DNA of 62,897 nt, filler included, from Reclinomonas americana ATCC 50394 (Eukaryota), in the NCBI GenBank assembly GCA_048213135.1. It is 12 parts of 9 records of this genome, joined end to end, with 100 filler letters (N's around TTAATTAATTAA, not from the genome) between each part and the next. Parts side by side here need not be neighbours in the genome. Positions count along the whole stretch, not along the records: positions 1 to 15,923 come from AFZH01016752.1; positions 16,024 to 27,487 come from PS016110.1; positions 27,588 to 28,735 come from PS016111.1; positions 28,836 to 33,066 come from PS016111.1; 8 more parts are not named here. One strand, 5' to 3'. How positions within the stretch are numbered: the stretch's first letter is position 1; each line of letters begins with the position of its first letter. The notes beneath the pieces were generated by a model. That model did no database searches. It worked only from the letters and a program-made list of their open reading frames with translations, and had not been told where the DNA came from. Positions 2 through 36,565 of the stretch are shown one piece after another. The translations under genes and the position numbers were made by a program.

Positions 2-1660
2 CTGCATGCCGCCGCCACCGCCGCCGCCGCCGCCGCCGCTGGTGATGCAGCCAAGAAGGCGACGAGCGAGTCAATGCCGCCGTTGCCTGCGCTGCCTGCA
101 TTGCCGCCGTTGCCGCCACTGGTCATTCCCAGCGGCTCTTCTCCACAGTCGTCTGCATCATCATCATCATCATCGTCATCGTCGTCATCTCCGCCGGCAC
201 CGGCGGCGGCCACCGCGTGCGACGCCTCACCACCGTCCGGCTCTTCGATCTGCGCACTGACTCTGTCGGTGCCGTCGGCGGCGCTGTCGTCGTCGAGTGA
301 GCACGTGCGGCAGGTGGGCTCTGTGATTGTGCAGCTGTCGCCGACCGGGCGCAAGCGCAGCGAGCCGTCGTTCCTGCAGTTGCAACTGCAGCGAGCCATG
401 GCGGAGCGCAAGCGTCTCGAATTAGAGCAGCAGCAGCATCAGCAGCAGCGACAGGCCCTCGGTGGCGACGATGCCTCTCCCACAACTCCTTCAGCAGGAG
501 GAGCAGCACCACCACCGCCGCCGCCGCCTCTTCCGCCTCTGGCGACGCCACTGGTGAGTGGCAGCCCGGCTGGCAAGTCGAAGCGGGCCTCCAGCACCGA
601 GAGTGCCGATCGCGACGCACACACAATCGAGAGACCAAGGAGACGACGAGCGGCGAAGCGACTGGCCAGTATGATGTTGATGGACGGCGACGACGACTGC
701 GATGACTGCGACGATGCCGACATGGACGTCGACAGCCGAGCCCTGGTCATGGCCATGGCGGCCGATGATGCCGAGTCGGCAGCCGCCGACGATGACCACG
801 CCGACGACTGCGACTACGTGGGTGAGACTTCACCGAAAAAGCGCGCTCGCCGTGCATCTTCGGCCGGCACCGCTGCGGCTGCCGCCGCCGCCGCTGCCTC
901 TGGCAAGAGCAAGAAGCGCGGCAAGGGTCGCACTGCCACTGCCGCCGCCACCACGACCATGGCCGCGTCGCGATCACGCAACCGACGAGCCAAGTTTCGT
1001 GACCTTTTCTGCGCGCGTGTTTCCACGACCGTTTTTTCTTTCTTCTTACTCACCCCCGCCCCGCGCAACACAGGAGATCGCCCGGCACCGACAACACCAC
1101 CTCCACGGCTCCGTCACTGAACGACATGGAGGTGGCACATTTGCTGGCCGGTGGTCTCGGAACTTCGTCGTCCGCCTCGGGCGGCGATAGTGCGGCGACC
1201 AATAGTCCCAACACAGTCGGCATGCCATCGGAGCGAGTGCACAAGGTGCGTGGGGATCTTCACACAAAAACAGGATGGGGGAGGAGGGGGTTGTGGAGAT
1301 GTTGGTGGCCATGTCGGCGTGTGAACTCACGGACTATCGCAGGTGGAGCACTCGTACTCGGCCACCAACTTGCCGCCGCTGCACCTCGCCGAGTCGTCAA
1401 ACTCGCCCTCGGCGTCGCCACCACTGATGCTCGCCAAGAGCAGTGCTGGCAACAGCAGCGGCAGCAGCAGTGCCGGTTCGTCGTCGCCGCACTGTGTCCT
1501 GTTTTCGGCGGCGCTTCATCACGCTGGCATGATGCTGCCACTTGGGGAGCACGGCGACCTGGCGACAGCAGTCTCCAAGGCACCTGTGGCAAAGAAGAGC
1601 ATCCACGACGTGGATGCACATTTGCTGGCGGCGGCGGCGGCCACCTTTGGCCGCGCATAA
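2..1660 (+). CDS. 5'-partial low-complexity Ser/Pro/Ala-rich protein with basic NLS-like stretches; 3 exons visible
   Basis: Frame open from the window start. Introns 994-1073 (GTTTCG..CAG) and ~1246-1342 (GTGCGT..CAG) keep one reading frame to ...AAATFGRA-TAA. No recognisable domain. Confidence 0.6.
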
Positions 1661-2012: not shown

Positions 2013-4589
2013 TCACACATTGTCGTCGCCCCGGCGCACAGTCTCCTCCTCCTTTTCCGCTTCTACCTCCTCGTCAGCATCGTGTCCCTCTGAGCTTACC
2101 AGGGACGAGTGCTCCGAGGGCTGCGTCATGCTGGAGGTGGCGCCGGCGCCGGCGACATGGCCCGCCATTGGAGCGCCCGCCTCCACCTCCTCCTCGTGCA
2201 TAATCACGGCCACCTCCTGATGCATGGCAAGAATAAAAATAAAAAAAAAGCGGGTGAGTGCCGCCAGTGGAGCGAGGGAAGATGCACACACACACACACG
2301 CACCTTGTACGCACGACCACCGATATCCACGTTGCCCTGCAAGCAGACAGAACGCAGACAAGTCAGGAAATAGACGAATAAAAAAGAAAGAGGTGCTGGC
2401 AAGGGCCTGGAGAGACAGAAGAGAGCAGTGATAATGAATGGCAGGAGTGCAACAGTGTCGCCGTGGAGTCGAATAGCCAGAGGCTGGTGGTGGCAGCGAG
2501 AGAGGATTCGAAGAAATACAGGATCCGGACTGACTGTGTCGATAAAATGAAACTCACCTTCCGGTGCAACTCGATGCTGGAGAGGAGGATCAGCACACCC
2601 CAGATGCCACCCCAAACCCTGCGCAGCAGACCGGCGGTGAGCAGTGGTAGCGGCGGCGCGCGAAGACACGGGGGAGAGACATTGCAAAGGTGAACGCACC
2701 AGCCCACAAAGATGGACACGAGGAACAACTGGAAGAGCCAGACGACCAGCTGGACCCTGTGGATGGCGGACGTGGAGGTGGGTGTGGGGGAGGGCGAGGA
2801 GGAGGAGAAGGAGGAGGAGAAGTGAGTGTACGTCAGTGATGACAGAGAGGGAAAGAGAGAGACAGAGAACAATGAGAGAGATGCAGACGAGGCTTTTCGA
2901 ACCGGTCGCGAAAGCACGAAGCGCGCACGCGCGACGAATAGTCATCAAAAGGGAAAGGGGAAAAGAGGTCAAGTCGCGCGGCGAAGCACACACATGCAGA
3001 GCATAGCGCAGCACGTAGGTGGAGGAGAGCGAGTGGTGGCGCGCGAAGCAGATGCTGCTGTTCACGAAGAATACGCAATGACCAAGTATGTCCATCTCGA
3101 ATACAGATTACTCGCCAAAAGCAGTGGCGAACAAGCAGTGTGGGTGGGAAAAGCGACAACGCGAGTGGCATGTCCCCGTGGAAACGACAAAAACAGACAT
3201 GCACTTTGCTGACGCACACGGTGGGAGCATGAGAGTGCGACAGCGAGAGAGAGAGGAAGCGTGCACAAACAACCAGACGACGAAATACTGTGTGATTGGT
3301 CATCCCGTTTTCCCGCACGGTGCAGCAAGGTGCGTGGGCGGCCATTTCCCATCTCCCCCCATCTCCACTCACCAAAACACCTGCGCGTGCAAGAAGAGAA
3401 GGGATGTGAGCTCGAGCACGCACACGTACACGCACACAGACGAGAAGCACGCGCCTCGCAGCCGACCACGACACTCGCCGTCTGTCGCCCGTCCAGATTC
3501 CTTTGCGGACAGCAACATTCCTGCCACGCGCACACACCCACATGCACAAGAGTGAGCAGGCAGAGAGACACAAGCAGTGGTGCGTGCAGTGGAGCACAGC
3601 GAGACCTGCATGCCCGCCACGAAAGCTGCCAAGAGTGTCCCGACCGAAAACGGCAGGAGATTCAACACGAATATGGGTATCTGAAATGCGCGAAACAACG
3701 TGAGAAGGAAGACTTGGCGAGGCCCGCTGCACGCACACACACGAAGGGCAAGAGGCCGGCACTCACCGCCCACCACAGTCGCAGCCGTGGAACAGCAACT
3801 TGTTCGAAAAACGTGTGGTGAGGTGTCATGTTCGAAAATTGGTGGTGGAGCATGGATATCACGCACCTCGTAGCCTCTCAAAGTAGCCCGGCGGCCTCGC
3901 CATGCGTCGAATGATACGCACCGAGCCAAAGGTGGCCACTGATTCTTCGTCCTCGTCGGCGTCGGCGTCTGCGTCGGCGGCCTCGTCGGCTTTGTCAATT
4001 TTGGCGCCATGACCGCCACTGCCTCGTGTTGTCGCCACCGCCGGCAGCTGCACGTTCGTCTCGCCACGAGCTCGACCCTCAGGAGCAGCAGTGGCCGCGG
4101 GAGCAGTGGTGGTCGAGGCGGTGGTGGATGGGGCACGCGGCCTCTCCAACAGCACCGTGAGCGGTTGGCCGTATGGCGAGTACCTGCGACATGACATCAA
4201 TGGAGTTGACACAACCAATCATCTGATTTTGTGCTGATTACGCAACACTCCATTGTCGTCCACCAAGGCGCCCGGCATGCTCCGCGGAGACTGCGGCGGG
4301 GAAGGAGGAGAGCGAGTGAGCGCGCGGCGCCGGCAACAGAGAAATTAGGCGAAAGAGCAGTACACTTCCGCACCCGCCGTGGTGGCACCGCTGGTGCTGC
4401 TGCTGCGGCGACGGCGACGGCGACTGTGTCTGTGGGCGGTAGTAGTGGCGACTGCTGCGGTGGCGTCCGGGGCGGCGTCTCCACGACAATCTCCAAGTTC
4501 TCGACATCGAACTTTCGAACATCATCGTCGTCGACCTCTGCGACAGGTGGTGGCGGTGGAGGAGGAGGCGCTGCCGCCATCGCCGCCAT
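2013..4589 (-). CDS. multi-exon hypothetical multi-pass membrane protein
   Basis: ATG at 4589 (MAAMAAAPPPP...). Exons bounded by GT..AG encode hydrophobic segments (LWWAIPIFVLNLLPFSVGTLLAAFVAGMQ; VQLVVWLFQLFLVSIFVGW; VWGGIWGVLILLSSI). Central exon structure uncertain. Confidence 0.5.
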
Positions 4590-6801
4590 GTGAGCGCAGA
4601 CGGCGCGCATCATCTCCGAGTCAAAGACACTGGCATCGATGTGGGCCACCACGGAGGAGCAGGCGGGCTGTTTGTTGCTGGTGGGATTGGTGGAGGAATG
4701 TACTACTCCAGCAGCGATACTCATGATGATCGATGATATATCGCGATCGTCACTGTTACAGAGTGCGTGAGAGAGAGAGAGAGAGAAAGAGAAGGGGACT
4801 GTGTGTGCGTGCTCTCGCAGATGATCAAGGAAGTGAGAAATGACGGTGACACGCAATTGCCAAAGAGCAGCGCTGCGAGAGGGGCTCGTGGAAGACAGTG
4901 AGTTGTGTGCGCGAAAGGAAGAATCGCGGCGCGTGTGCATTAGGTCGCCGAAGTGTAGTGCGTGCATGTGTGCATGTGTGTGTGTGTGTGTCGGTGCATG
5001 AGACTCACCCGATGCAACGCACTCCCGCTCGTGACACGACGCGACTGAGTAGTGATCGATGATGGGGGGAATTTCGACGCGAAAGGCGAGTGCTTTTCAA
5101 TGAAAGCGCGTGGGGGAGGTGAGGGAGGGGGAGAGGGGAGTGGGAGGAGACGAGCGGTGGTGAGTGCGCATGAGAGAGAGAGAGAGAGCGGAGCGAGAGA
5201 GAAGAGGAGAGAGCAATGGGAGCGACATTGCCAATTTTTGCGATACAGCGCGCGTGGGTTGTTGTTTGAGTGGGTTGCTGTTTTGTTTTTCGTGACATTG
5301 GTGGCGATGATGTGGCGGTGAGTGACGGGGGGCACGGTGGATGGCTGGGTGAGTATGCGCAATGACGACGGGATGCCCGATTTGGAGGGCGCGCGAGAAT
5401 TTTATGGATACAGCACATTGTGTGGTTCGCAATATTGAGAGTGTGCGAGCGATGTGGGGAGAGGGTGGAAGGGGTGGAGGGAGGAGGTGGAGGGAGGGGG
5501 GATAATACTTGACAGCGCCAGCCAACGTCCGCGAATGTCTTTGAATTTGAAGGAGTGATTGAGAGTTGTCGATGTCACGTGTTTTCCGATCCGCGCGCGG
5601 TTGCTGTCTGTTTTCATCTTTGTTGATCATGGCCCCCAAGTACACTGAGATGTGTATGCGAAGTAACCGAAGAATGTGGCATCGATTTTCAGCCACAGCA
5701 TGGAAGCAAAAAGATGATCGCGACGAGAACTTGACATTCCGCCTGCGGCCGTCGTACATGTTCGTGGGGTGACAACTCTCTCGCCCCTCCGATACCGGCT
5801 GCATGTGCACACACCGCCTGGTCAGTTCAACTCCTCGTGTACGACTTACAACAAAAACAACTTCACAAATCCAAACAGCAACACAGCTGCATGATGTTCA
5901 CCATCTTGAGTGCGCACCAGAAACTCAGACATCATGGGGAAAAGCGAGAAAAAGTCTTGATGGCTAATGCTGGCGTTTCTGCAAGAGAAACCACATGACA
6001 AGCATGAATTTGAAGCCGCTGCGAATTCCAAAATCAGAGAGACCCGACTGATAACCACAGTGAGAGTACCGGTACCGACCAAGTGGCCTACTCTCCTGTA
6101 TCCATGCGCGCGCGCGCGGTTCCACTCTGCGGCGAGAACACAATCTTCACGGTGTCCTCGAATGTAGCGTCCGCTGCTCACCTCTTTCCCACGGTTCCTG
6201 ATCGATTCTATAGCTATGTGCACTCTTCTGCGTACCTTGTCTCCCACTATCGTGGTAGTGACTCCACTTTCCTTTCAAAATATTGGAAATGTCCAGGATG
6301 AGTTTTTGGTCAACGGCCGCTGCGATGGCGACCACCACCACATCAGCCGCCAGTGCACCATCGTGGCGCTAGTCACCCGCGACACGGCGGACGTCGACGG
6401 ATATCGATCGCCGCCAGCCTTTCGCAAGCGACTAATCATGTTCGGATCCGGCAGTGGGAGTTTTATTTTTGATCTCACTTGCCCTTCGCACACCCCACCC
6501 GCTCACCCACCGTCGCGCACCACAGAGAAAACCAAGCGAATCGGCCAAGCTGGCGAGCGATGCGATGCAGTGGCGGCATTTCCATTTTCGACGACCTCAA
6601 CGGTTGGATTTTGGTGCGTCAGTTTTTGTTCGTTCGTGCGAGAGAAGATCAATACCTCCGCTTGCCTCCACGCACGCGTGTACAAGGCAAGAGCGAATCG
6701 CTCGCTCGCACACGCACGCACAGAAGGACACCTTCTCAGTCGCGAGTACTCGGTCCTCCCAGTGGCAGTTGTGAAGTTGTCGTGAGAGTGAGAAAGAGAC
6801 G

Positions 6802-9800
6802 ATGCAACGAGTGCAGACGCCACAGCGTCGTTCGGGTGAGTCATGAGGAGAGAGACACTGTGTTTGTGTATGTGTGATGTACACGTGAGAGAGATCATGT
6901 GTGTGCGTGAAGAGACGCACACAAAATGGTGGAGAGAGCGAGAATCTGTGACAAGGGTGTGTGTCTTCGTGTCACACCGTGAGAGCAAGCGCAAGAGAGT
7001 GTGTGCGTCAAGGAGAAAGAGAGAGAGAGAGAGCAAGCCACGTGTCACAGGAAGGGAGAGAAAGAGACAGTGCACAAATCAAGAATGTGCGCTGGCAATC
7101 ACATGCGTGCCCGTATCGCACGGATTCTGTCACTTGAACGTTTTGCTTCTCTCCCCTTCCCCTCCTCCTCCTCCTCCTCGTCGCCGCTCCCATCACGCAC
7201 ACTCACTTTCACTCACACAGAATCGCCTTTGGTGAGCGACAATGGGAGCGGTGGCTTTCGATCGGTCGCGGGAGCCATGATGCCACGCGCGTCGATTGCA
7301 ACCATGGCCGCCGCCGGAATCGTGAGCGCTTCTTCGCACGCGAGTGACTTCTCGCCGCGATCACCCATGGGAAGCGCCGACGCGCAGCACCACTTGGATG
7401 CGCACGATCCATCGAGCAGTGTTGGCACCAGCATTGGTCGCTCACCTGTGGTGGCCAGGGGCGCGCGGTTGCCACCGCAACCCAAGTTCCGCCTGTCGTC
7501 GGCGTGTGTTACGGTGAGCGGGGGGCGGGTAGGACAAGGGTGGCGAGAGAGAGTGAGAGACGAGAAGAGGGTCGCAGAGGGAGAGAGGGCGGACAGTGAG
7601 ATACGGGTGTGGATTGCTCGGGAGGAGGAGAGAGATAGCACGCATGGTGTCTGTGAGAGCAAGGAGGAGGGAGGTAGAGAGGGGAAGGGCGAGAGCATGG
7701 GAAGAACGGCCTGCTGTGACCATCAAACCGTTGTATTCGATTCATGATTGATTGATGGTGTTTCGCGCACAGGCCGGGCGCAAGATTGATCTGCAGCTGC
7801 TGCCACCCGGGCACGTGCGGGTATCGGTCGGCGATGCGCCGCTGGCAGAGCGGAGAAGCTCGGCCACAGCAGCAACACCGACGTCCAGCGCAGCAGCAGC
7901 AGCAGCAGCGGCGATAACCAATACTTCATTGGTCGGTATCTCCAACTTGGCCCGTTTGCAGCAGTCGTCGAGTTTCGGGTCGCGACCCAACGGAGCCGCG
8001 GCAACGCAGGCCCTGTCGGCCCCCGTGTCGCCGCGTGATATCCTCACGGGTTCGATGCAGCTGGTCAACACCATTAGCGCATCGATACGATCGGCGCCCA
8101 CCACTGGACGACAGGCCAGCAGTTACGCGATCACAAAAGACCCTCGCGCCACACATCTGTACTTCGCACACTCACTATTGCTCGATGCAGCCGACGACCT
8201 CGGTGGCATGCGGTTACCGCAGGTGCGACGCTCCGATCGAGCCTACGAGGAACTGGAGCAAGTCATGGGTTGCGTTCGACCCTTTCTTCTTCACGCCCGC
8301 TGCTACTCACCGCCACCACCACCACCATTACGCGCACAGAGGAGGCACGCCGATTGCACACGGCACACACAGGCAGTCACAAGTCCGGCTCCTCGGCGGC
8401 AGACGGCGGACGATCGCAGAATGCGTTTGGCAATGCACGACGCACACCGGTTTCCGCCGACAAGCGCTCGCTGCTCACACGGAAAATCGAAGAACAATTG
8501 CGCGAGTGGAAGGACGATCCGCGCAAGATTGCTCGGCTCGACGAGGAACTCGGTGAGCCCTCAGTGCAACAACCACCCTTCCTCTCCCTCCTCCTTCTCT
8601 CATCCGTTTGTGCGCGCGCGAACAGCCGAACTTGAAAAGGCGCGGCGCGAATCAATGCGGGAGCATCAGCGCGGGCAGGAGGACTATGTGCGCCGCAACA
8701 TGCACGACTCGTTCGATCCGAACGAGGCCGCGGAGGCTGCTCGGGAGCGGCAGGAGAGATTAACGGAGAGGATGCAGCGGGCCACCATGTCGCGGCAGGA
8801 GCATCAGCGGGCGGAGAGGATCGCAGTGATTGAGGAGTGGGAGAGAGAGGAGGAGAAGGGGGTGGTGGCGCAGCAGGTGCGGTGAAAGGGGAGGGAGGGG
8901 GGAAGAAAGGGGGAAGGGGGGTATGAGGGGAAGGGGTGTGAGGGGAAGGGGTGTGAGGGGAAGAAATAGAAGGGAGAAAAGGAGAAAGGAGAAAGTTGAA
9001 GGGAGAAGGAAGAAGGGAGAAGGGAGAAGGGAGAAGAGAGAAGAGAGAAGAAATGAGAAGGGTGGGAAAATGTGAAGCGTAGTTGCACCGAGGATGGAGA
9101 AGTGGAAGCGGAAGAGCAGATGGAAAGAAAGGAAGCGAGGTATGGCAGCGAGAGGTCTTGTTGAAAGCTGGGAGCAGGAAAGCGATGACAAGGGGGGAGT
9201 TGGGAAGTTGGAGATGCAACGTGCTTACAGAGACAAGGAACGGGAGCAGGAAAGCAATGAGGAGAGATTGTGAGGTGAAGATGGGAGAGGTCAGTAAGAA
9301 ATCGTGGTTGCATCCATGGGAGCAGAAAAGTGATGGCAAGGGAGGAGTTGGAAGGTCGGAGAATCATCTTTGCTTTCAGAGACAGGGAAACCATGACGGA
9401 GAAGTGTTGGAAAGAAAGAAGAGAGGAAACGGAAGAGAGGCAACTTTGGTTGCTCTGCAAGAGATCTGTACAAGGGTAGAGAACTGGCATAGAGAGATGG
9501 GAAGCGCTGTGAAGAAGAAACTGGAAGAGAGGATATAACAGGGCCTGCAAGAGATTTGCACAAGGATGGAGAATTGGGAGCTGGAAAGCATTGAGGTGAT
9601 AGAGATGAGAAGGGTGGGGAAGAGCTGGGAGAAAGAGGAAGATATAGTGGTCGCAGAATGCACTGGAGGGTGAAGAATGGTGAAGGGGCAGAGAGGGGAG
9701 GAGGCAAAAATAACAGGGCTGTTCTGGCTGAGAACGGTGGGAGAAGAGAGGAAGAAATTGTAGTTGTATTTGGAATGCACTGGCAGAGGCAGAAAGGCGA

Positions 9801-12499
9801 AGGGGCAGACGGAGGAAGGATAGGACGAGAGAAAATAACAGAGCAGGGAACGTGGTTGCTTTGCGAGAGGTTGCACAGATGGAGAACTGGGAGCAATGAA
9901 GAGAGAGAGATTGTGAGCAGAGAAGGGTGGGAAAGAGCTGGGAAACTATGGTTGCACAATGCACTGGGAGGAGAGATACAGAGGCAGAGAGGGAAAGGTA
10001 GGACGAGAGAAAGCAGCAGAGCAGAGAACGGGGTTGCGCTACACAGGGAGCAGAAAGCAATGAGGAGATTGTGAGATGAGAATGGTGGGAATGAGTTGGG
10101 AAAAAGACCGTGGTTGCCCCGCGAGAGATTGCACAAGGAATCAAGGACTGAGAGACCAATGAGGAGGGAAATAGTGTGAGAAACCGACGGGGCCACCTTC
10201 ACTGTCACTCATCACCGTTGCCTTCTCTGCAGGTGACGGCGGCGCGTCAGCGAGTAATCGTCATGAGACCAGTGGTGCGCAAGTGGCTGCTCAGCATCAC
10301 TGTCGTGCAGCGACTCACCTTCCTGGCCGAGCACCTCAAGGTCTGTTCAGTGTCCTTGAATCGAGACGAGTGTGTCCCCACTAACACCCCACTGCAGGAG
10401 GCTCGCGTGGAGCGGGAAGCGCGAGAGCGGCTGGCCTGGGCCGTCAATGTGCTGCAGGGCAAGTTCTATCCGTACATGCTGTTGAGACATCGCATGATGC
10501 AACGGCGCGCGTGCGTCAAGATTGCGAGGTTTGGCGGCAAGCAAGTGTGCGCGAGTGGAGTTGTGTGTGTTTGCTCACTCTCTTGCGTGTCGCAGACTGG
10601 TCCCCATCTGGCGCTTCTTCCGACGCATCAAGAAGAAGCGGCAAGCGGTGGCCTACATCAAGGAGTTTTGTCGCGAATACTCCAAGACCCGGCGTCTGCA
10701 AATGGCAGTGGAGGCGTTTGCCAGGAAATGTTGCGCGCATGAGTGCACTCTCTCTCTCTCTCTCTCTTTCTGCTTTTCGCTCACGGTGCTGTGGTGTGTG
10801 ACACAGTGCGCAAGGGTCGTCAGTGCTTCGTCCGCTACATCGAGTATCGGCGTGCGGAGCGCAAGGCCAGCAAGAAGAAGATCTTGGCCATTTTGCGGCG
10901 TATCATTATTTTCTACCCGCAGCGCAAGGGTGTGGCCAGTGCGGTGGATTGGTTGTCGAGGAAGGTTTGGAGGGGAAAGAGGGGAAGGGGGGAGAGGGGC
11001 GAGGAAGGGGAAGGGGATGGGGGGAGGGCGATTAAGGGGAAGGGGGAGAGGGGAAGGGGAAGAAAAAAGGGACTGAGGAGAGGAATGAGCAGCTGCAAGA
11101 AAGAGAGTATGTGTGCCACAGGAGTTGGAAAGGAACTGGTCATTCTCGCTTTTCTACTGTGCCTACTTCTCTCCTGCTCATCTTTTTTCCAACGGAGAGC
11201 ATATTGAAGCTTTCTTCACTGCGTCGATATCTCATCTTGTGTGATTGCTCCGCCGTTACCGTCATCTCACTCTCGCACATTCGTCTTTGTTCTTGAACTC
11301 CCAATGGTTGAAGACTCTGCTTGTTATTCTCCCCGCCTGTGATTGTTGTTTGCTCTGACCGTCGGCGCATTATCTTCAGCTGCTTCAATTGGAGGCTCTC
11401 TGCTTGTCTGTGTGTCATTCTCCGTGCCTGTGATTGTTGTTTGCTCTGACCATCTGCGCATTATCTTCAACGCTGCTTCAATTGGAGGCTCTCTGCTTGT
11501 CTGCGTGTCATTCTCTGTGCCTGTGATTGTTGTTTGCTCTGACCATCGGCGCATTATTCTCAACGCTGCTTTCGGTTTCGCTCCTCGTCTTGATTCGGCT
11601 TTACCTCATCGCGTGCGCTGTGGAGAGTGATAGTCACGGTATCGTTTTCCGCATCGCTTCCGTCGGTGATTGCTTTTGTAGCCGTCTGCTGTTGCTTTCT
11701 CACTTCCTCACTGCTGCGTCTTTTTTATTCGTGTTAATCGCGTTGAGTGACTCTGCTTCTCAATCGTTCTCACTTACTGCACTCCTTGTTGCTGCTTCTT
11801 CATCCTCTACAGTGCTTTCTCCGCCTTAACTTTTCACTCCCCCCTCCTTCCCTCTTCACTCACCCCCTGCGTCTCGCCCACAGCGCGGAAATCTGCACGA
11901 TCGAGCCGAGGTCGCCCTGGTGCCCGACGAGGCGCTGCCGCGCCTCCGCGCACAGCTGCCGACCGATGCACCCATATGGCAGGTGTCGCGTGCACTGATT
12001 ATGCAGGCGCTGGTGGAGACGATTATCAGCCGCCGCCAGACGTACTTGCGCTACGTGCGCTCGGTGTGCCGACTGCAGAAAATGAGAGCGGTGAGCGAGA
12101 ACACTAGCGAGGCCATTGCATGCATGCACATACACAGTGCTCACACGCTGCGTGCAGGAGGACCCCGACTTTATCGGCGACAGTTCCGACACCGAGCCCG
12201 TGGACCAGACGCTGTTCGACGATGGCCCGTCGACGGGCGAGAGTTCGCACGACCTTGTGCAAGCGCTGTTGAAGCAGAGCACGCACAAGCAGAGGATACG
12301 ACCGTTTCGCGGCGAGCTGAACCTCGACGAGTGCTGCGGCGTCATCAAGCACGTGCTGCAGCGCGTGGCGCCGCCGCCACCCGTTGTGGCGAGTGGGGGA
12401 GGTGGGTCTGGGGGTGGTGGAGGCGGAGGTGGAGGAGGAGGGGGAGGTGATCACGGCGGTGCCAGTGGTGCCGCTGGCCACAAGCGGAGGAAGCGGTAG
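6802..12499 (+). CDS. multi-exon hypothetical coiled-coil / basic helical protein
   Basis: About 10 exons joinable in frame through GT..AG introns, from MQRVQTPQRRS (6802) to GHKRRKR-TAG (12499). E/R-rich coiled-coil exon at 8625-8876. Confidence 0.65.
11335..11570. repeat. intronic tandem repeat, ~90-bp unit, ~2.5 copies
   Basis: GCCTGTGATTGTTGTTTGCTCTGACC occurs three times about 90 bp apart. Confidence 0.85.
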
Positions 12500-12554
12500 C
12501 ACAATAGGGCGCGATGAGTGTACTCAATTAATTATCATGCGACGAGTGTTGTTG

Positions 12555-12650
12555 TCAACTTGTCAGTTGGTTTTACTGCAGCTATCACTAAGACGTGATT
12601 GGCGACAGCTTCCCGACTCAGCAACGAGTGGGAATTACGAAAGACAAGTC
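12555..12650. other. conserved structured non-coding element, copy A
   Basis: 83-nt near-identity to 14586-14668. Hairpins ATCAC/GTGAT and TTCCC(G)ACTC/GAGTGGGAA, closing stem CTTGTC/GACAAG. Confidence 0.6.
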
Positions 12651-12888
12651 AGCAGACGGTGGGCGGAGAGAGAAGAGAAAGAACAACAAACAAACACAAA
12701 GGTGACACAGCGTGCAGGAGAGAGCAATATGACATGCACAGATGGCGATGTTGGTGAGTGAGTATCATCACCAACATAGTTTGTCGCAATCCGTGATGCA
12801 GCAATGCCCCTGCTATGTGACACAAGCAGTGTGTGTGTGAGTGAAGGTGACTTCTCGCCGTAGGGTGCCCACCGGCTGTGGGTGGCAG

Positions 12889-13262
12889 TCAGTAGCCACT
12901 GTTGCCGTAGGGGTCGTACGCTTCGAAGAACCAATCACCCTCCGGGTCGGCGCCCGTGCGCCCGGACGGATTGCTCTCGAAGCAATCGGGCTCTGTAATT
13001 GTCGCAGGCGGAGCATGATGACGCGACTCCTCCCGCAGCTGCTCGTTGGCATGGCCGCTTCCTCCGGCAGCCTGGTCATCAGAGTAGTCGTCACTGACAA
13101 GTTCCGGCTGAGGCCGAGGCTGCCCGTAATCGATCGCCATCTTCCGCGGCAGCTGAGACGGCCACGCTTGCCAAGGGTCATCAGTCCGAGGAACGGAAAC
13201 GTGGCTCGCCACGTAATACGGCGGCATCTGACTGTGAGGACTGTCGGCCGCGAACGCAGGTG
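12889..13262 (-). CDS. terminal exon of an orphan acidic/Pro-rich protein
   Basis: CAG acceptor at 13263-13265, then an open frame ending EAYDPYGNSGY-TGA. Upstream exon uncertain. Confidence 0.5.
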
Positions 13263-13657
13263 CTGAGGAGGGATCCAGAGGGGGAACCAGTGAGGAAGCA
13301 AGGATGGCACAGGGAAGGGAATTCTTGAGGGAGAGAACAGGAAAAAGAGAAGGCAACCAGTGACGAAGAGAACGCGGACAAAGAGAGAAGGGCCACAGAG
13401 AAGGAGCCAAGAGTACAAGTGACAAGCCGACAACAAAGAACGTAAACAAGAGAGAAGAAAGTGCAAGAGACGACTTGAAGGAGCATTCCAAGCGGAGAGG
13501 CGCAGCGCAGGCACGGAGAGAGAGAGAGAGCGAGAGAGAAAGAAAGAGAAAGAGAGAAGGCAACCAGTGCAGAAGCGAGCGCGGAAAAAGAGAGAGTGAG
13601 GGCAGAGAGAAAGAAGGAGCCCAAAGAGCAAGTGACAAGCCGACAACAAAAAAGTAA

Positions 13658-13701
<44 letters not shown>

Positions 13702-24526: not shown

Positions 24527-26794
24527 TCACTCGGGTTGATGGACGGCGTCGTGTGAGGCCCAATCGAAGGAACGGACGACGGCTTTCTTCCACAAGGCGA
24601 AGCGGTGCTCGCGGGCTTCGGCGTCCAGGTGCGGTTCGTACACGGAGGCTGGGCGGCGACCGAGTTTCTGATCGTTTTTCGTGAGACTCCTCCCGCCAAG
24701 ATTGACAGTTCTGAGAAGGCAAACTCACCGAGGTCAAGTCGTCCAGGTCGGAGAAGAGACCGCTGCCGATGGCGGCGCAAAAGGCGGCGCCTGCGGGGAA
24801 GGGTGAGATAACGTGTGCAAATAATGGCAGCAGGAGAAAAAGCACAAACCGAGTGCAGTGGTTTCCGCATCCGCTGGTTTCACTGCAACGCACGCATGTC
24901 AGTGTCGGTGGCAACAACACCGCAATCGCACAGACACGTAACCTACAGGAATGCCGAGCAGATCCGCTGCGCGCACAAGGACGGCAAAATGAGCAGCGCA
25001 AGGACACGCTGCATCATCAACGAGCATCACCAACCTTGCAGCTGCACAAACGCCGTGTTGATGGTCATTCCGCCGTCGACGCTGACCTGCAGCACTGGAA
25101 TGCCCGAGTCAAGCGACATGGCCTCCAGCACCTCACGCGTCTGGTAGCACACGGCCTCGTACATGGCGCGCACAATGTGACGCCGTTCCGAGTACGCCGT
25201 CAGGCCCACGATGATGCTGCACGGGGAAGAAGAAGAAGTGAGGGGCACAACACTCTTTCCGTCATGAGGCCTGCTCAAACCGCACCCGCGAGCATCCTCC
25301 CGCCAGTGGGGCGCAAACAGACCGCCGAAAGCGGGCACAAAGTACACGCCGCCCGTGTCCTGCACCTCCTTCAGAATCGACTCGCCTTCCGAGTAGTTGC
25401 GCAGTGCGCCCATGTTGTCGCGCAGCCAGCGCAATCCCGATCCGGCCACTGCAATGGCACCCTCCAGCGCGTACACCACATGCGAGGAGGCGCCCATTTG
25501 GTAGCCAATCGTGGAGAGCAGGCCGTGGCGCGAGAACGGGCACGTGGTGCCGGTGTTGGCGAGCAGGAACGCACCCGTTCCGTAGCTGCGCGGAAACGGA
25601 CAAGGCGTTGGAAGAGAACGAGAGTCGACGACGGCAACAACATCGAGTGCGCGCAACGTATTCTTCGCCTCGCCCGGTCGGTGGCAGCACTGACCGACGA
25701 GCGCCGACTGCTGATCGCCGATGCAACCGGTAATAGCGATTCCGTCAATCTGCGCGTCTCCCACTGCCACCACGCCAAACGGCTCGGCATTCGAGTGCAC
25801 AGTCGGCAGCGCCTTGGCGGGATCAACGCCAAAGAATTCACACGCCTGTGGGTCCCACTGGTGCTGTTTGATGTCGAAGAGCAGCGTGCGGCTGGCATTT
25901 GTCACGTCGGTGCGATGCACGCCTCCTCCCGTGGCACCGCCAGTCAGGTTCTGCGAGTGGATGAGTGCACGGCACGGCACCCAGAGAGATTCAGAAGGCG
26001 CACCCAAATCAGCCAGCTGTCGACTGTGCCAAAGAGGCAGCGACCAGCGTCGTAGGCTTCACGGATTTCGGGGATCTTTCACCGAAGAAGAGTGTGAGCG
26101 AGCTTCGAGAAAAGCAAGGAGGAGGCCACGGTCAGCGCAACATTTCGCAGCATCCACGCAATCTTCACACCACTAAAGTACGTGGAAATGGGCAGTCCAC
26201 AGCGCTCGGCAAACACATATCGCGCATCCATTCCCTCCGGCAACGGCAAATCCGCCCTCCCGCTCACCGACTGCGTCAACTCCTGACACAACGCCGAAGT
26301 TCGCGCATCGTTCCACACTGTCGCGACGAATGAGTGACAAGTGAAGGGGAGAGAGAGAGAGAGAGAGAGAGAGAGGCTGCGCGTGTCGACGCAACAAATG
26401 GCATTATGCAGCGGTTGACCCGTGGTCTTGTCCCAGGCAACCGTCGACTCTCGCTGATTCGTGATGCCAAACTACCGGTCGCCTCACTGGTCAGAGCAAG
26501 CGAGCGCGACGTACAATCACAGAGATAAACATACACACCGCGACAACTCGACTCTTGTCCACTCCGGCCTTGCTAATCGCCTGTCGCATGCACTCGAGCG
26601 ACGACGACAAAATCGACATGGGATCGAGCTCGGACCATCTAATGATACGGTGAGCATCAAAGAAGAACGCTGACTTGAGCAGGAGGTTGACGCAACGCTG
26701 GCTGTGGGTGCACGGGTGTGAGCTCGATTTGATGCGACGCGACCACCTCGAAGGTGTCGGCGCGGTATAACAGGAAGCGCGTGGAGGAGGTGCC
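24527..26794 (-). CDS. GK: glycerol kinase (FGGY family); first exon lost in the gap
   Basis: Spliced motifs GTSSTRF, GITNQRESTVAWDK, GTVDSWLIWNLTGG, TDVTNASRT, GDQQSALVGQ, AKNTYGTG, YALEGAIAVAG, GVYFVPAFGGLFAPHW, VDGGMT, ETTALGAA, WKKAV. Confidence 0.96.
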
Positions 26795-26885
26795 TGCGCA
26801 AGGAGAAGAGATATTAAGAAAGGGAGACTAAGAAGCCAAGGAGAAGAAATAGGAGAAGAGAGCGGAAAAACACAAGAGAGGAAGC

Positions 26886-27390
26886 CCACTTGAAGTGAGA
26901 AGGCGAGACAGGAGAGGGAACGGAGAATGCGAGTGCAAACCCACTTGAAGTGAGCATGCATTCTGATGGATCGAGATAAGAGAGGAAACGGAGAAATGCG
27001 AGCGCAAGCCCACTTGAAGCAAGAACGCATTCTGATGAACCAAGCGGAGAAACAAGTGCATCCCCGCGCCAGATGCTCACTTGAAGCAAGCACGTATTCT
27101 GATGAACCGAGACAAGAGGGGAAACGGAGAAATGCGAGTGCAAGCCCAGTTGAAGGGGGGAGACATTCTGATGGATCGGTGAGGAGAGGGTGCGGAGAAA
27201 CGCATCCATGCAAGCCCAGTTGAAGCAAGAACGCATTCTGATGAGTCGAGAGAGGAGAGGAGCCAAGAAACGCATCAACGCAAGCCCAGTTGAAGCAAGA
27301 ACGCATTCTGATGAACCGAGCGGAGAAACACGAGTGCATGTGCGCGCCAGATGCTCACTTGAAGCAAGCACGCATTCTGATAAACCAAGC
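26886..27390. repeat. intronic minisatellite, ~69-bp unit, ~8 copies
   Basis: CCCA(C/G)TTGAAGCAAGAACGCATTCTGATG recurs every ~69 bp and the intervening sequences are related to each other. Confidence 0.9.
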
Positions 27391-27451
27391 GAGGAAGCGC
27401 AACGCCCAACGCAGAGAAACACATACACACACACTCACTCTCTCTCTCTCA

Positions 27452-27487
<36 letters not shown>

Positions 27488-27849
27488 NNNNNNNNNNNNN
27501 NNNNNNNNNNNNNNNNNNNNNNNNNNNNNNNTTAATTAATTAANNNNNNNNNNNNNNNNNNNNNNNNNNNNNNNNNNNNNNNNNNNNAGAGAGAGAGAGA
27601 GAGAGAGTGAGTGAGGAACAGCACGAGTGAAGGGAACAAACACGCTATAGAGACGGGAAGAGCGTAAAGATGGAAGACAGAAAAGTGATAGAGAGACACG
27701 AGAATGATTCAGAGACACAGAGACAAGATGCGAGAGACAGAAAGTAGAGACGCACAGAGCAAAAGAAAGCCACCTTTCGCGTCGCTTTCTCATTTTTTCA
27801 TGTCGATTGTTCTCCTGCTCACTTTTCCCCCATCCCTCCCGTCACACAG

Positions 27850-31387
<3,538 letters not shown>

Positions 31388-31856
31388 TTGAAGGGTCGTG
31401 TTGGGAGAAGGGTGCGCGAGGGGAAAGGAGGACAAGCCAGTCAGGCAAGTTTATGTCGACGGAGAGATTGCACGTATCAGGAGGAGGGTGCGTGAGGGGG
31501 AAGGACGAGAGCACAGCTGCGTTGCCAGCAGTCTTTCATGGTAAGTTCATGTCGATGGAGAGATTGCATATCTTGAGTTGTTGGAGATGGAGTAGGGCGC
31601 GATAGCCGAGTCGGTGGAATTCAGATGACGAAGGGACGGCTTCACGAATCCACTTTCGTCTCTCGCAAGAGTTTGCAACTCCGGGGGAACCTGATCTGGT
31701 GACGGCAGAATGCAGCACAGCCTCGCACCGGTGCCTATCGCAGACCGTTCTCTGCCTTGCCTCGATCGCTTCGTTCCTCATAGGCTGCAAGCGGCTGAAG
31801 CAGCGCTTGCTACAGAGCAGCGGCAGTCTTGCGCAGGTGCCTCAAACGGAGATAAT

Positions 31857-32080
31857 CGACCTCTCCGACTCGTGCAAATCGCTTTCGTCTCTTGCAAAGT
31901 GGCTACAAGTTGAGACACCCCACGTACTACACAACAGCACCTGCAGTCACCTCGAACGACTGCACAAACTCGGAGATACTCCCGAACGTCGACCTCTCCG
32001 ACTCGTGCAAATCGCTTTCGTCTTTTGCAAAGTGGCTACAAGTTGAGACACCCCACGTACTACACAACAGCACCTGCAGT
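31857..32080. repeat. direct duplication of ~92 bp, 132-bp period
   Basis: TCGACCTCTCCGACTCGTGCAAATCG...CAGCACCTGCAGT at 31857 and 31989. Confidence 0.9.
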
Positions 32081-32146
32081 CTCACACGACTCACGCCCTC
32101 CGTCGTTCAAACAACTTCACGGGACACGCCTATCAATCAATCCGTC

Positions 32147-32700
32147 ATGTGGTGGCGCGTGGGCGCTCGTCTATTCACTCCCACACCACTCGCCACCTCT
32201 CGCTGGAATGCTATTCTCCGCACACCCATTGCCCTCTTCTCCTCGCGTCAATCCGATGTTGCGCACACACACACAAGAAGAAGAAGTGTCAGTTTGTGTC
32301 TGTGTTCAACTCACTCTATCACACACAAACAGCGTGCGGTCATTGAGCAACCTCTGGCGCACATGATTAGGCGCCAGTGGGAGCGAGAAGGCGGAGTGGT
32401 GGAAGGTGAAAGAGCAACTCACAATCAATGAGTCACACTGTGTGTCTCACTCATTGTGCGCACAGAGGACGAGCATGTGTTGCAAGAGACCTTCCAGTCA
32501 GAGGTGCCTCTCTCTCACTCACTTTCTCGTAACACATTGAGTGTCAGTTTGCTCAACTCCGCCTTTATTTTTTTGTTGTGATAGAGTGATTTGCAGGGCA
32601 AGAAGGATGCATTTGAGGCGCAGATCATTGTGGGTGATCCGACGGCGCAGGCCTCGGCGAGTTCCATGTTGAGTGGGCCACTGTGGCGCGGAAACGGGGG
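32147..32700 (+). CDS. 5' exons of a hypothetical, possibly mitochondrion-targeted protein
   Basis: MWWRVGARLFTPTPLATSRWNAILRTPIALFSSRQSD is Arg-rich and acid-poor like a presequence; followed by three in-phase GT..AG introns. 3' end unclear. Confidence 0.55.
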
Positions 32701-33066: not shown

Positions 33067-33327
33067 NNNNNNNNNNNNNNNNNNNNNNNNNNNNNNNNNN
33101 NNNNNNNNNNTTAATTAATTAANNNNNNNNNNNNNNNNNNNNNNNNNNNNNNNNNNNNNNNNNNNNTCTCTCCCTCCCTCCCCCCCTTCTCTCTCTGCAT
33201 CGATGACGCGAGGGATGCCAGCTGCCTCCTGATCTCCACCACGCCAATAACGATCTGTGACGATGATTCATGTAGAGACTCTCCACCAGTGTCACACAAT
33301 CTCCCCCTTCCCGTCTCCACGTGCACT

Positions 33328-35571: not shown

Positions 35572-36565
35572 AGTGTCTGTGTAGGGGAGAGAGAGAGAGA
35601 GAGTGAGAGAAGAGGCGGGGGAAGAGTGGGAGAGAGAGAGAGAGAGTGAGAGGAGAGTGTGAGTGAGAGAATGAAGAGAGAGAGGGAAGAGAGGGGGAAG
35701 AGAGAGTGAGAGTGAGCAACTGAGAGTGTGTGAATGAGAGAGGGGAATTTCATAGTGCCTGTGGAGGAGAGAGANNNNNNNNNNNNNNNNNNNNNNNNNN
35801 NNNNNNNNNNNNNNNNNNTTAATTAATTAANNNNNNNNNNNNNNNNNNNNNNNNNNNNNNNNNNNNNNNNNNNNGAGAGAGAGAGAGAGAGAGAGAGAGT
35901 GAGAGAGAGAGAGAGTGACTGAGTGAGAGAGTGAGTGAGTGAGTGAGAGAGTGTGAGTGAGAGTGAGTGAGAGAGAGTGAGTGAGAGTGCGTGTGAGAGA
36001 GAGAGAGAGAGTGAGTGAGTGTGAGAAGGAGTGAGTGAGTGAGTGAGTGTGAGTGTGAGAAGAAGGAACTGGACAGACTATATTGATGAGCGCCAACATG
36101 CGCGCGCGTGACACACACGCACACACAGGTGGAAACACACATACACGTGCAGCATTAACCACAACACGCACCTTGTGTTTGCGTGCGAGTGAGCGTGTAT
36201 GTGCGTGAGATTCAAAGATGCGTGTCCCTTGACGTCGACGGCCTCTCCTCGTCTATTCTCGCTTGCCCTTTGTGCAAGGTTGTGAGTTTGCTTTGTTTGT
36301 TTGCCGCATCACCAACAAGCACAAAAGCAAGAGTGGGAGCGCGAAGTTGTTTCGCCGCAAAGAAAAGTCGTCGACAGTCGCTGTTTGTTCGAGAATCACT
36401 GCAGTGGCAAGAGACGCCACCACTGCCTATCATGATCCACGCAGCGTGGCAAATCGCAAAAGACACTCAAGAGACGCGCGCGCATTTCACACACACACGC
36501 AATCACAAAATGCCTCTTTTCCCGTTTCTCCACTCCTCCTCACTGCGAGCTCCTCATGCCTGTGA

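Follow-up and report, generated by a model that had tools for sequence, protein, structure and literature searches.

The stretch of DNA considered here, which I will call the window, comprises 62,897 nucleotides (filler included) of the genome of Reclinomonas americana ATCC 50394 (assembly GCA_048213135.1). The subject is a class of 5' splice sites (donors) within it: introns that begin with GTTGCG and that are almost never preceded by G. A G at position +5 of the intron and a G as the last base of the exon are among the most conserved features of splice donors, and the GTTGCG donors lack the first and nearly always the second. An earlier note, made from the sequence alone, had listed 16 of them and proposed that U1 small nuclear RNA (snRNA) reads them in a register shifted by one base. 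The window is eukaryotic DNA of about 55% G+C, rich in short introns (one coding sequence of 1.55 kb contains 11), and all counts given below come from this one stretch of 63 kb. Positions run along the window, donors are named by the first base of the intron, and -1 denotes the last base of the exon.

A Pfam profile search of stop-to-stop open reading frames (ORFs) placed four gene regions: an F-box gene, an XPC/Rad4 gene and a glycerol kinase gene, all on the minus strand, and on the plus strand a protein kinase followed by WD40 repeats. All four contain GTTGCG donors.

The glycerol kinase gene (FGGY family; 24527–26793, minus strand), recognized by the Pfam families FGGY_N and FGGY_C, was modeled by hand as 12 exons separated by 11 introns of 53–78 nt. 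Four of the introns have GTTGCG donors; the other seven all follow G. The product, aligned with 10 homologues (the closest at 48% identity), shows no gap at junctions 1–10. The four GTTGCGY donors lie at 26690–26696 (junction 1; preceded by C, phase 2, intron of 58 nt), 26389–26395 (junction 3; T, phase 1, 78 nt), 26135–26141 (junction 4; T, phase 0, 66 nt) and 25651–25657 (junction 6; C, phase 2, 72 nt), the last in a motif invariant across the aligned homologues. Moving both ends of the intron by one base, in either direction, alters conserved residues at 26395, where such a move places Trp at a conserved Val/Leu position, and at 25657, so that the GT-AG placement is the consistent one; at several other sites the one-base alternatives are silent. 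The codon split by junction 1 (26697/26638, minus strand) reads Ala, at a position where all 10 homologues have an invariant Gly before a conserved Trp, and no other GT-AG choice yields Gly. The 5' exon or exons, coding for the start of the N-terminal ATP-binding motif, were not located upstream of the model; directly upstream of the first exon found are tandem repeats of about 60 nt (26830–27420, minus strand).

The XPC/Rad4 gene (17646–24236, minus strand; Pfam Rad4 and BHD_3) was modeled with the guidance of tblastn and of an alignment with two relatives (P0121 and P0122), the only ones found. Removal of 19 introns leaves one continuous frame of 1288 codons to the stop. GTTGCG begins five of these introns and GTTTCG one. 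Among the remaining 13, G precedes the donor in 12, the exception being 18542 (GTGAGT), which comes after T. The alignment is free of gaps at the GTTGCG donors 22388, 19114, 18647 and 18412, and also at 22099, 20439, 18960, 18542 and 18244. The first of these GTTGCGY donors (22382–22388; junction a, preceded by C, phase 0, intron of 70 nt with an in-frame TAG at once) appears in both runs of the gene finder described below and is gap-free against both relatives. Its intron joins the conserved part of the protein to a 618-codon ORF without a Pfam match (24236–22389, minus strand), which is the N-terminal part of XPC, long, repetitive, acidic and lysine-rich. The others, likewise on the minus strand, lie at 19108–19114 (junction k; T, phase 2, 59 nt), where, besides the alignment, the tblastn segments stop and restart one residue apart, 18641–18647 (junction n; C, phase 0, 65 nt) and 18406–18412 (junction p; A, phase 2, 53 nt). 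At 18412 the downstream exon also begins with GTTG, and the exact cut is set only by the choice of GT-AG. The fifth (17938–17944; C, phase 1, 60 nt) lies in the unconserved acidic tail of the protein; it was found in both runs of the finder, has no homology and is a weaker call. One further GTTGCGY in the gene, at 18922–18928 (minus strand), was rejected as a donor, since homology to XPC places it inside a 61-nt intron that starts at 18960. Two XPC introns (21847–21085 and 20147–19275, minus strand) are far longer, at 763 and 873 nt, than the usual 65 nt or so and may contain hidden exons; both are purine-rich on the coding strand, and the first carries tandem repeats of about 120 nt.

On the plus strand, protein kinase exons run in frame into WD40 repeats (27850–31387), as judged from the Pfam families Pkinase and WD40, an alignment of kinases and the gene finder. 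A (GT)n run and masked N break into the gene at 28585–29300, and three of its donors are GTTGCG. The first (28471–28477; preceded by T, phase 0, intron of 63 nt) is kinase junction 4, one of four junctions in a stretch of five exons that show no gap against eight kinases. The frame of the kinase C-terminus then passes through introns 29795 and 29923 into the WD40 repeats without a stop or a new start codon, and the two are therefore apparently one fusion gene. The donor at 29795–29801 (C, phase 2, 61 nt), for which there is no homology, was found in both runs of the finder and is needed to join the kinase and WD40 frames. The donor at 29923–29929 (A, phase 0, 64 nt) was absent from the earlier list and is likely an additional member of the class. 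It was found by the donor-informed run only, the agnostic run having picked GTAGAG 24 nt upstream instead, and it has the second-best score for intron likeness among all 44 GTTGCG sites. On the minus strand, an intron of 57 nt with its donor at 17417–17423 (C, phase 0) splits the F-box: an F-box-like profile matches over positions 8–22 in exon 1 and 23–45 in exon 2, with one residue of slack, both matches being below the Pfam cut-off.

Four further GTTGCGY donors lie elsewhere in the window. Those at 4240–4246 (minus strand; preceded by T, phase 2, intron of 63 nt) and 10730–10736 (plus strand; T, phase 1, 77 nt) were found in both runs of the finder and have no homology. That at 8269–8275 (plus strand; phase 1, 71 nt), also found in both runs, is the sole case preceded by G, and removing its intron together with the next one restores a coiled-coil-like frame. 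The last (32258–32264, plus strand; T, phase 0, 75 nt) follows a short first exon that begins with ATG and was called from its frame and from branch and CAG signals only; with its low coding score it is the weakest of the 16 sites first listed, accompanied among the weakest by 17944, where read-through is open.

GTTGCG thus stands at all 16 of the sites in the earlier list, 5 on the plus strand and 11 on the minus strand, and position +7 is a pyrimidine (Y) at every one. The preceding bases are as had been claimed: C in seven, T in seven, A in one (18412) and G in one (8269). It had also been said that conserved motifs fix most of the junctions, and this holds for 10 of the 16, by homology or by continuity of a profile (four in glycerol kinase, four in XPC/Rad4, one in the kinase and one in the F-box). 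The remaining six (4246, 8269, 10730, 17944, 29795 and 32258) were called from frame, from branch and acceptor signals and by the gene finder. The heptamer GTTGCGY itself is overrepresented, with 35 occurrences on the two strands as compared to 20.9 +/- 5.0 in shuffles that preserve dinucleotides; none of 100 shuffles reached 35.

The gene finder worked by dynamic programming, combining periodic Markov scores for coding sequence with a branch word, an acceptor matrix and a prior on intron length. The -1 base never entered the finder or any gene model. A donor-informed run, whose donor model covered the intron side only, found 10 of the 11 introns in glycerol kinase, and of the 16 claimed donors it found 11. 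A donor-agnostic run, which required only GT, called 77 introns, and GTTGCG was their most frequent donor hexamer (11 of 77), preceded by A once, C five times, G once and T four times, while among the 66 other donors 35 follow G (p = 0.008). Since this run took its coding model and acceptor matrix from training on the donor-informed output, some leakage is possible. Homology served to correct errors of the finder by hand: the false donor at 18928, which the donor-informed run had used, a one-base exon at 18581–18582, donors misplaced at 20476 and 19241, and the choice of 18043 or 18055. An earlier finder based on codon log-odds alone was dropped because of its many long false introns and its drift. 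A test that ignored coding altogether, looking for GT followed by the branch word CTSAY and then AG, selected 23 of 44 GTTGCG sites against a background of 28% (p = 6e-4) and placed GTTGCG second among enriched hexamers; a test of so little specificity can carry no more than that.

From these sources I assembled a curated set of 62 introns, all of them GT-AG by construction. Homology supports 24 and profile continuity one; 18 come from hand models without homology, 18 from other genes where both runs of the finder agree, and one is the claimed site called from its frame (32258). Introns called by the finder between 17600 and 31400 were replaced by the hand models, a replacement that includes the uncurated 24138 and 24326, and two finder introns longer than 110 nt (7514 and 15440) were left out.

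The curated donors fall into three classes. GTTGCGY accounts for 17 introns (27%), preceded by A in two, C in seven, G in one and T in seven, so that the description of GTTGCG as a major donor class stands for the window. A rarer form with the same extra T, GUU(A/U)CGY, accounts for four, preceded by A in three and G in one: GTTACGY after G at 24936–24942 (minus strand; glycerol kinase junction 9), GTTTCGY after A at 20829–20835 (minus strand; XPC, where an in-frame stop forces an intron and only one GT is available), GTTACGY after A at 8122–8128 (plus strand; both runs, intron likeness 20.3) and GTTTCGY after A at 994–1000 (plus strand; both runs, intron likeness 15.6). The remaining 41, which I will call ordinary, follow G in 35 (85%), A in three and T in three. 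C never precedes them, and on the exon side they are unusually strict. The exceptions that are supported by homology or frame are 18542 (T/GTGAGT, the slash marking the cut) and 29579 and 30281 (both A/GTGCGT).

The association between the donor word and the base before it, the central claim made for these sites, is strong. Only 1 of the 17 GTTGCG donors follows G, as compared to 36 of the 45 others (Fisher p = 1.0e-7). The contrast appears in every subset: 0 of 10 against 14 of 15 where homology or a profile fixes the junction (p = 3.4e-6), 1 of 7 against 22 of 30 in the remainder (p = 0.007), 1 of 16 against 36 of 45 for the originally claimed sites alone (p = 2.4e-7), 0 of 4 against 7 of 7 within glycerol kinase (p = 0.003) and 0 of 5 against 12 of 14 within XPC (p = 0.002). 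Adding the uncurated 24138 and 24326 as ordinary donors without G leaves 36 of 47 others after G (p = 3.6e-7). It is not simply that the requirement for G is relaxed. Judged by the coding background at matching codon positions, G is depleted before GTTGCG (1 observed, 5.6 expected; p = 0.009) and pyrimidines are in excess (14 observed, 8.0 expected; p = 0.003). Counted over the 16 sites not preceded by G alone, the excess of pyrimidines loses significance (14 of 16, where a share of 0.70 is expected; p = 0.10).

The intron side of the class is as rigid as its exon side is free. Across all 17 sites, +3 to +6 never vary and +7 is always a pyrimidine, while at -1 a pyrimidine is found in 14 of 17. 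Ordinary donors are looser at the matching core positions, with 63% G, 39% C, 90% G and 76% Y; tails of GAG and TG are freely used among them, and 37 of the 41 (90%) have G at +5. All 21 donors with the extra T have C at +5 and G at +6, as compared to the matching C-G in 14 of 37 ordinary donors (p = 7.6e-7). The view of GTTGCG as a displaced GTGCG is well founded in the same comparison: the commonest ordinary donor is G/GTGCGY, and the new word carries its TGCGY core one base further into the intron. A possible pairing between -1 and +4 is compatible in 16 of the 21 extra-T donors, about 12.7 being expected from the marginals, a hand count that is not convincing.

In the other features measured the introns are alike. 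Median length is 64 nt for the GTTGCG class and 67 nt for the others, and G+C content is 0.54 and 0.55. A CTSAY branch word lies 6–45 nt from the acceptor in 13 of 17 GTTGCG introns and 30 of 39 others, at a median distance from the acceptor of 14 and 18.5 nt, and the acceptor is CAG in 15 of 17 and 36 of 39. Because the classes agree in every other feature measured, the comparison speaks for one splicing system with two donor words. Removal of the introns yields the gap-free glycerol kinase, XPC and kinase alignments and the continuous XPC frame, and branch word and branch distance, so far as sequence can tell, are those of the major type. The GTTGCGY introns are shown by this to be ordinary short GT-AG introns of the major (U2) type with a second rigid donor word, non-G/GUUGCGY, and within the window the donors are real and form a strong pattern. 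An origin from introners or transposons was also considered and rejected: by eye, the introns have no evident sequence in common beyond the donor, and the motif does not recur in inverted form at their 3' ends.

What reads such a donor is a separate question. Nearest-neighbor energies of pairing were calculated for the textbook sequence of the U1 5' end, taken from PMC4856993. The shifted or bulged U1 register proposed in the earlier note agrees with the donors in that their core is offset by one base and follows a non-G; it fails in that textbook U1 has no stable register for the class. When canonical and shifted energies are compared, the +1 shifted register is optimal for just 1 of the 17 real sites. 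G/GUGCGU pairs with -6.3 kcal/mol and G/GUGAGU with -10.7 kcal/mol, and over the real donors the mean energy is -0.84 kcal/mol for the GTTGCG class and -6.67 kcal/mol for ordinary donors. By the same energies GUUGAGU would be the better shifted site (-2.7 kcal/mol). Among the 37 sites in the window with GTTGAGY or GTTGTGY, none is donor-like, and this, with the restriction to C-G tails, means that the class is not a generic shift by one base.

The best explanation, to which I give a probability of roughly 0.4, is an offset register that needs a guide RNA different from textbook U1. The RNA that guides the cutting of ordinary donors, most likely the U1 5' end, would pair with the UGCGY core one position out of register. 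The first G of the intron would then occupy the slot of the last G of the exon, so that an exon G would no longer be selected. The pairing lost at the cut would have to be repaid by perfect pairing of the core, which would make +3 to +7 invariant and allow only C-G tails; ordinary sites, keeping the exon G, could afford A or U in the core. The partner would have to pair with the G and C of the core, and textbook U1, with its two pseudouridines there, does not. The proposal thus predicts a U1 or a U1 variant with G-C-pairing bases at positions 5–6, and the variant U1 or U6 snRNAs that the earlier note held as a fallback would be a requirement of an offset register here.

A trial of all 16 dinucleotides at U1 positions 5–6 gives some idea of such a partner. 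GC is the most stable for the 41 ordinary donors (-8.97 kcal/mol, as compared to -6.67 for UU) and also for the 17 GTTGCG donors (-6.86 as compared to -0.84), and with this hypothetical RNA every one of the 17 adopts the offset register, C4 pairing with +6 and A7 with +3. Two small observations fit as well. Three of the four GTTWCG donors, whose core is weaker, follow A, a base that U10 of U1 would pair with if the register were shifted (p = 0.027, n = 4), a small hint. Ordinary donors with a CG core have a non-G at -1 slightly more often (3 of 14) than those without (3 of 27).

Several points weigh against an offset register. C/GUUGCGU and U/GUUGCGU come to about +0.5 kcal/mol with textbook U1, with no consistent register. 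The trial of dinucleotides is partly built in, since a G-C pair scores above A-U and the donors are rich in G and C, and it amounts to a prediction rather than to evidence. A shifted or bulged helix would gain from a purine at -1, yet G is avoided there, and this depletion is not predicted by the pairing argument alone; with a partner that pairs with G and C, everything fits but the avoidance of G. Ordinary donors prefer A at -2 (15 of 41), and the GTTGCG class shows no corresponding preference at -1 (A in 2 of 17). Few RNA sequences are as conserved among eukaryotes as the 5' end of U1. Finally, Rfam models found no spliceosomal RNA gene (U1, U6 or U5) in the window, either at the gathering level or permissively at E <= 1. 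The full form of the proposal is much more doubtful than its outline: it is unlikely that the U1 5' end, or that of a second expressed variant, has been re-coded to pair G-C in place of the two pseudouridines of model organisms, and that a quarter of the introns have co-evolved an out-of-register donor word with C at +5 and selection against an exon-terminal G.

Two other explanations remain live rivals, the dedicated variant RNA treated below and recognition at the level of U5 and U6. According to the latter, pairing with U1 is of minor importance, and donors trade the strength of an exon-side contact (U5 loop 1) against that of an intron-side contact (the U6 ACAGA box or a protein), GTTGCGY being an intron-side site so strong that it does without the exon G. 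Two donor classes have been ascribed to U5 and U6 contacts (PMC11732430 and PMC9803359), and an invariant intron side with a free exon side is what one would see. Against this, positions +3 to +5 are U, G and C in 17 of 17, where the described U6-type class (NN//GURAG) has R, A and G, and I found by hand no convincing pairing with an ACAGA box. Such a trade-off relaxes -1 to any nucleotide and does not deplete G below background, and it leaves the exact one-base offset of the TGCGY core unaccounted for. On balance I consider it improbable.

A dedicated second guide RNA is somewhat harder still to credit. A variant U1 or some other small RNA, fully complementary to GUUGCG, would read these sites in a canonical register of its own, while standard U1 reads the ordinary donors. 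The inability of textbook U1 to bind GTTGCG sites is in its favor, as is the rigidity over seven intron positions between pyrimidine flanks (-1 in 14 of 17, +7 in 17 of 17): the RNA perhaps has a G facing each flank, and one G could pair with either C or U. Expressed variant U1 snRNAs are described for humans (PMC3561869 and PMC10870369). On the other side, the identity of the motif, at an offset of one base, with the commonest ordinary donor would be a coincidence, and the flanking preference at -1 loses its significance once G is set aside.

Another conceivable register is a bulged one, where G+1 and U+2 pair with U1 normally, one of the two U's next to that G is looped out as a bulge, and pairing resumes with the GCGY tail one position later. 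A +2/+3 bulge register has been validated in humans for several dozen sites (68 predicted, of which curation left 54; PMC4856993), and the energy model does fold G/GUUGAGU in this way, and also G/GUUGCGU if U1 is given GC at positions 5–6. In a bulged helix the last base of the exon still faces C9 of U1, so that G should stay favored at -1, where it is found in 1 of 17 against 5.6 expected, and the GCG tail with textbook U1 does not support the register. I regard this reading as quite improbable.

That the pattern is an artefact of the choices made in modeling genes, of a small sample or of true cuts lying one base away is very improbable, despite the 7 of 17 sites without homology support and the errors that the finder made (18928, the one-base exon, 20476 and 19241). 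The subset fixed by homology or motif suffices to show the contrast (0 of 10 against 14 of 15), the -1 base was used in no model, false donors would bring in G at its background frequency and weaken the contrast instead of producing it, and at 26395 and 25657 a one-base move of both intron ends alters conserved residues. Least credible of all is a strongly diverged system akin to the minor spliceosome with its own rigid donor word, for although the rigid extended intron-side motif without exon requirement recalls U12-type introns, and intermediates between major and minor classes are catalogued across species (PMC11347168), the donor word is unlike that of U12-type introns and the branch motif, the branch-to-acceptor distance, the length and the acceptor are those of the other introns.

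If the pattern extends across the genome, then in about a quarter of the introns of a natural genome position +5 is C and the cut is hardly ever preceded by G. This would provide a ready system for determining how far the register between a guide RNA and a splice site can slide, and for asking whether snRNA 5' ends can evolve in step with introns by the thousand and how the cut is placed when U1 binds off register. There is a practical consequence for annotation: a gene finder whose training used the standard donor matrix will overlook GTTGCG introns or set them in the wrong place, and several of these are free of stops in frame and lie concealed inside long ORFs (for example those at 25657, 17423 and 17944).

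A few other features of the window may be recorded. Two ORFs on the minus strand, 40124–42355 and 8807–10198 (744 and 464 codons), are the longest of their regions and lack codon periodicity, all three codon positions being equally rich in C and T. The first has a pectate-lyase-like Pfam match at residues 268–343; the second probably arises as the shadow, on the antisense strand, of a purine-rich stretch. The permissive Rfam search (E <= 1) gave, over the window, only sub-threshold matches to hairpins resembling microRNAs (miRNAs) or small nucleolar RNAs. A strong hairpin at 43352–43476 draws dozens of sub-threshold miRNA-like matches on both strands (the best at 56 bits, the cut-off being 80) and is probably an inverted repeat, not a known RNA family; a weaker hairpin region lies at 41185–41397. 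Eleven identical copies of 44 N, 12 bases and 44 N occur at 15924–16023, 27488–27587, 28736–28835, 33067–33166, 35775–35874, 42585–42684, 54943–55042, 56900–56999, 58912–59011, 60515–60614 and 61762–61861, and there is one run of 987 N at 38208–39194. At least two of these lie inside (GA)n or (GT)n runs. The patterns as a whole look like masking or gap filling within microsatellites, and they break up the kinase gene.

How does the GTTGCG class compare with systems already described? I found no link to GTTGCG or GUUGCG as a donor class in the literature collection searched, where the eight matches were primers or unrelated uses. Among the closest known systems are noncanonical U1 registers. 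Shifted and bulged registers are proven in human cells (PMC4856993 and PMC9311317). Validated ones (shifted, bulged and with asymmetric loops) make up about 1.5% of 201,541 human 5' splice sites, the +2/+3 bulge accounting for 54–68 sites (PMC4856993). The human +1 shifted sites (Roca and Krainer 2009, as presented in PMC4856993 and PMC9311317) share with the donors of the window a GUU start, a conserved tail one base further in, a first intron G that can fill the slot of the exon G, and a last exon base that need not be G. They differ in being rare and in the A-rich tail to which the two U1 pseudouridines pair, whereas here 17 of 62 introns are involved, the tail is G-C-G, which textbook U1 cannot pair, and the analogue with an A tail is absent. 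The human sites with bulges or asymmetric loops likewise have an extra U between GU and the paired tail (PMC4856993), but a bulge keeps the exon G paired, while here G is depleted at -1, and the frequency here is more than ten-fold higher.

In animals and plants, two donor classes that vary inversely have been linked to contacts with U5 and U6 (PMC11732430). They resemble the present case in that one genome holds two separable classes, one relying on the exon G and the other on the intron side. In that system the intron-side word is GURAG and the requirement at -1 is merely relaxed; here the word is GUUGCGY, with C at +5, and G is depleted in the second class. The ordinary class here, moreover, is strong on both sides of the cut, with G in 85% at -1 and in 90% at +5. 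U12-type introns, too, have a long rigid donor word and an exon that is not conserved, but their donor word is not GTTGCGY, and the branch words (CTSAY) and acceptors found here match those of the major-type introns of the same genes.

The last comparison is with Ostreococcus lucimarinus, whose donors outside chromosome 2 have the atypical consensus GTGCGTG, and for which adaptation of the snRNAs has been raised as a question (PMC2483917). The GTGCG(T) core is the commonest ordinary donor in the window as well. The passages of PMC2483917 consulted mention no GTTGCG class, and they describe a genome poor in introns with the branch word GACTGACG, as compared to an intron-rich window with the branch word CTSAY.

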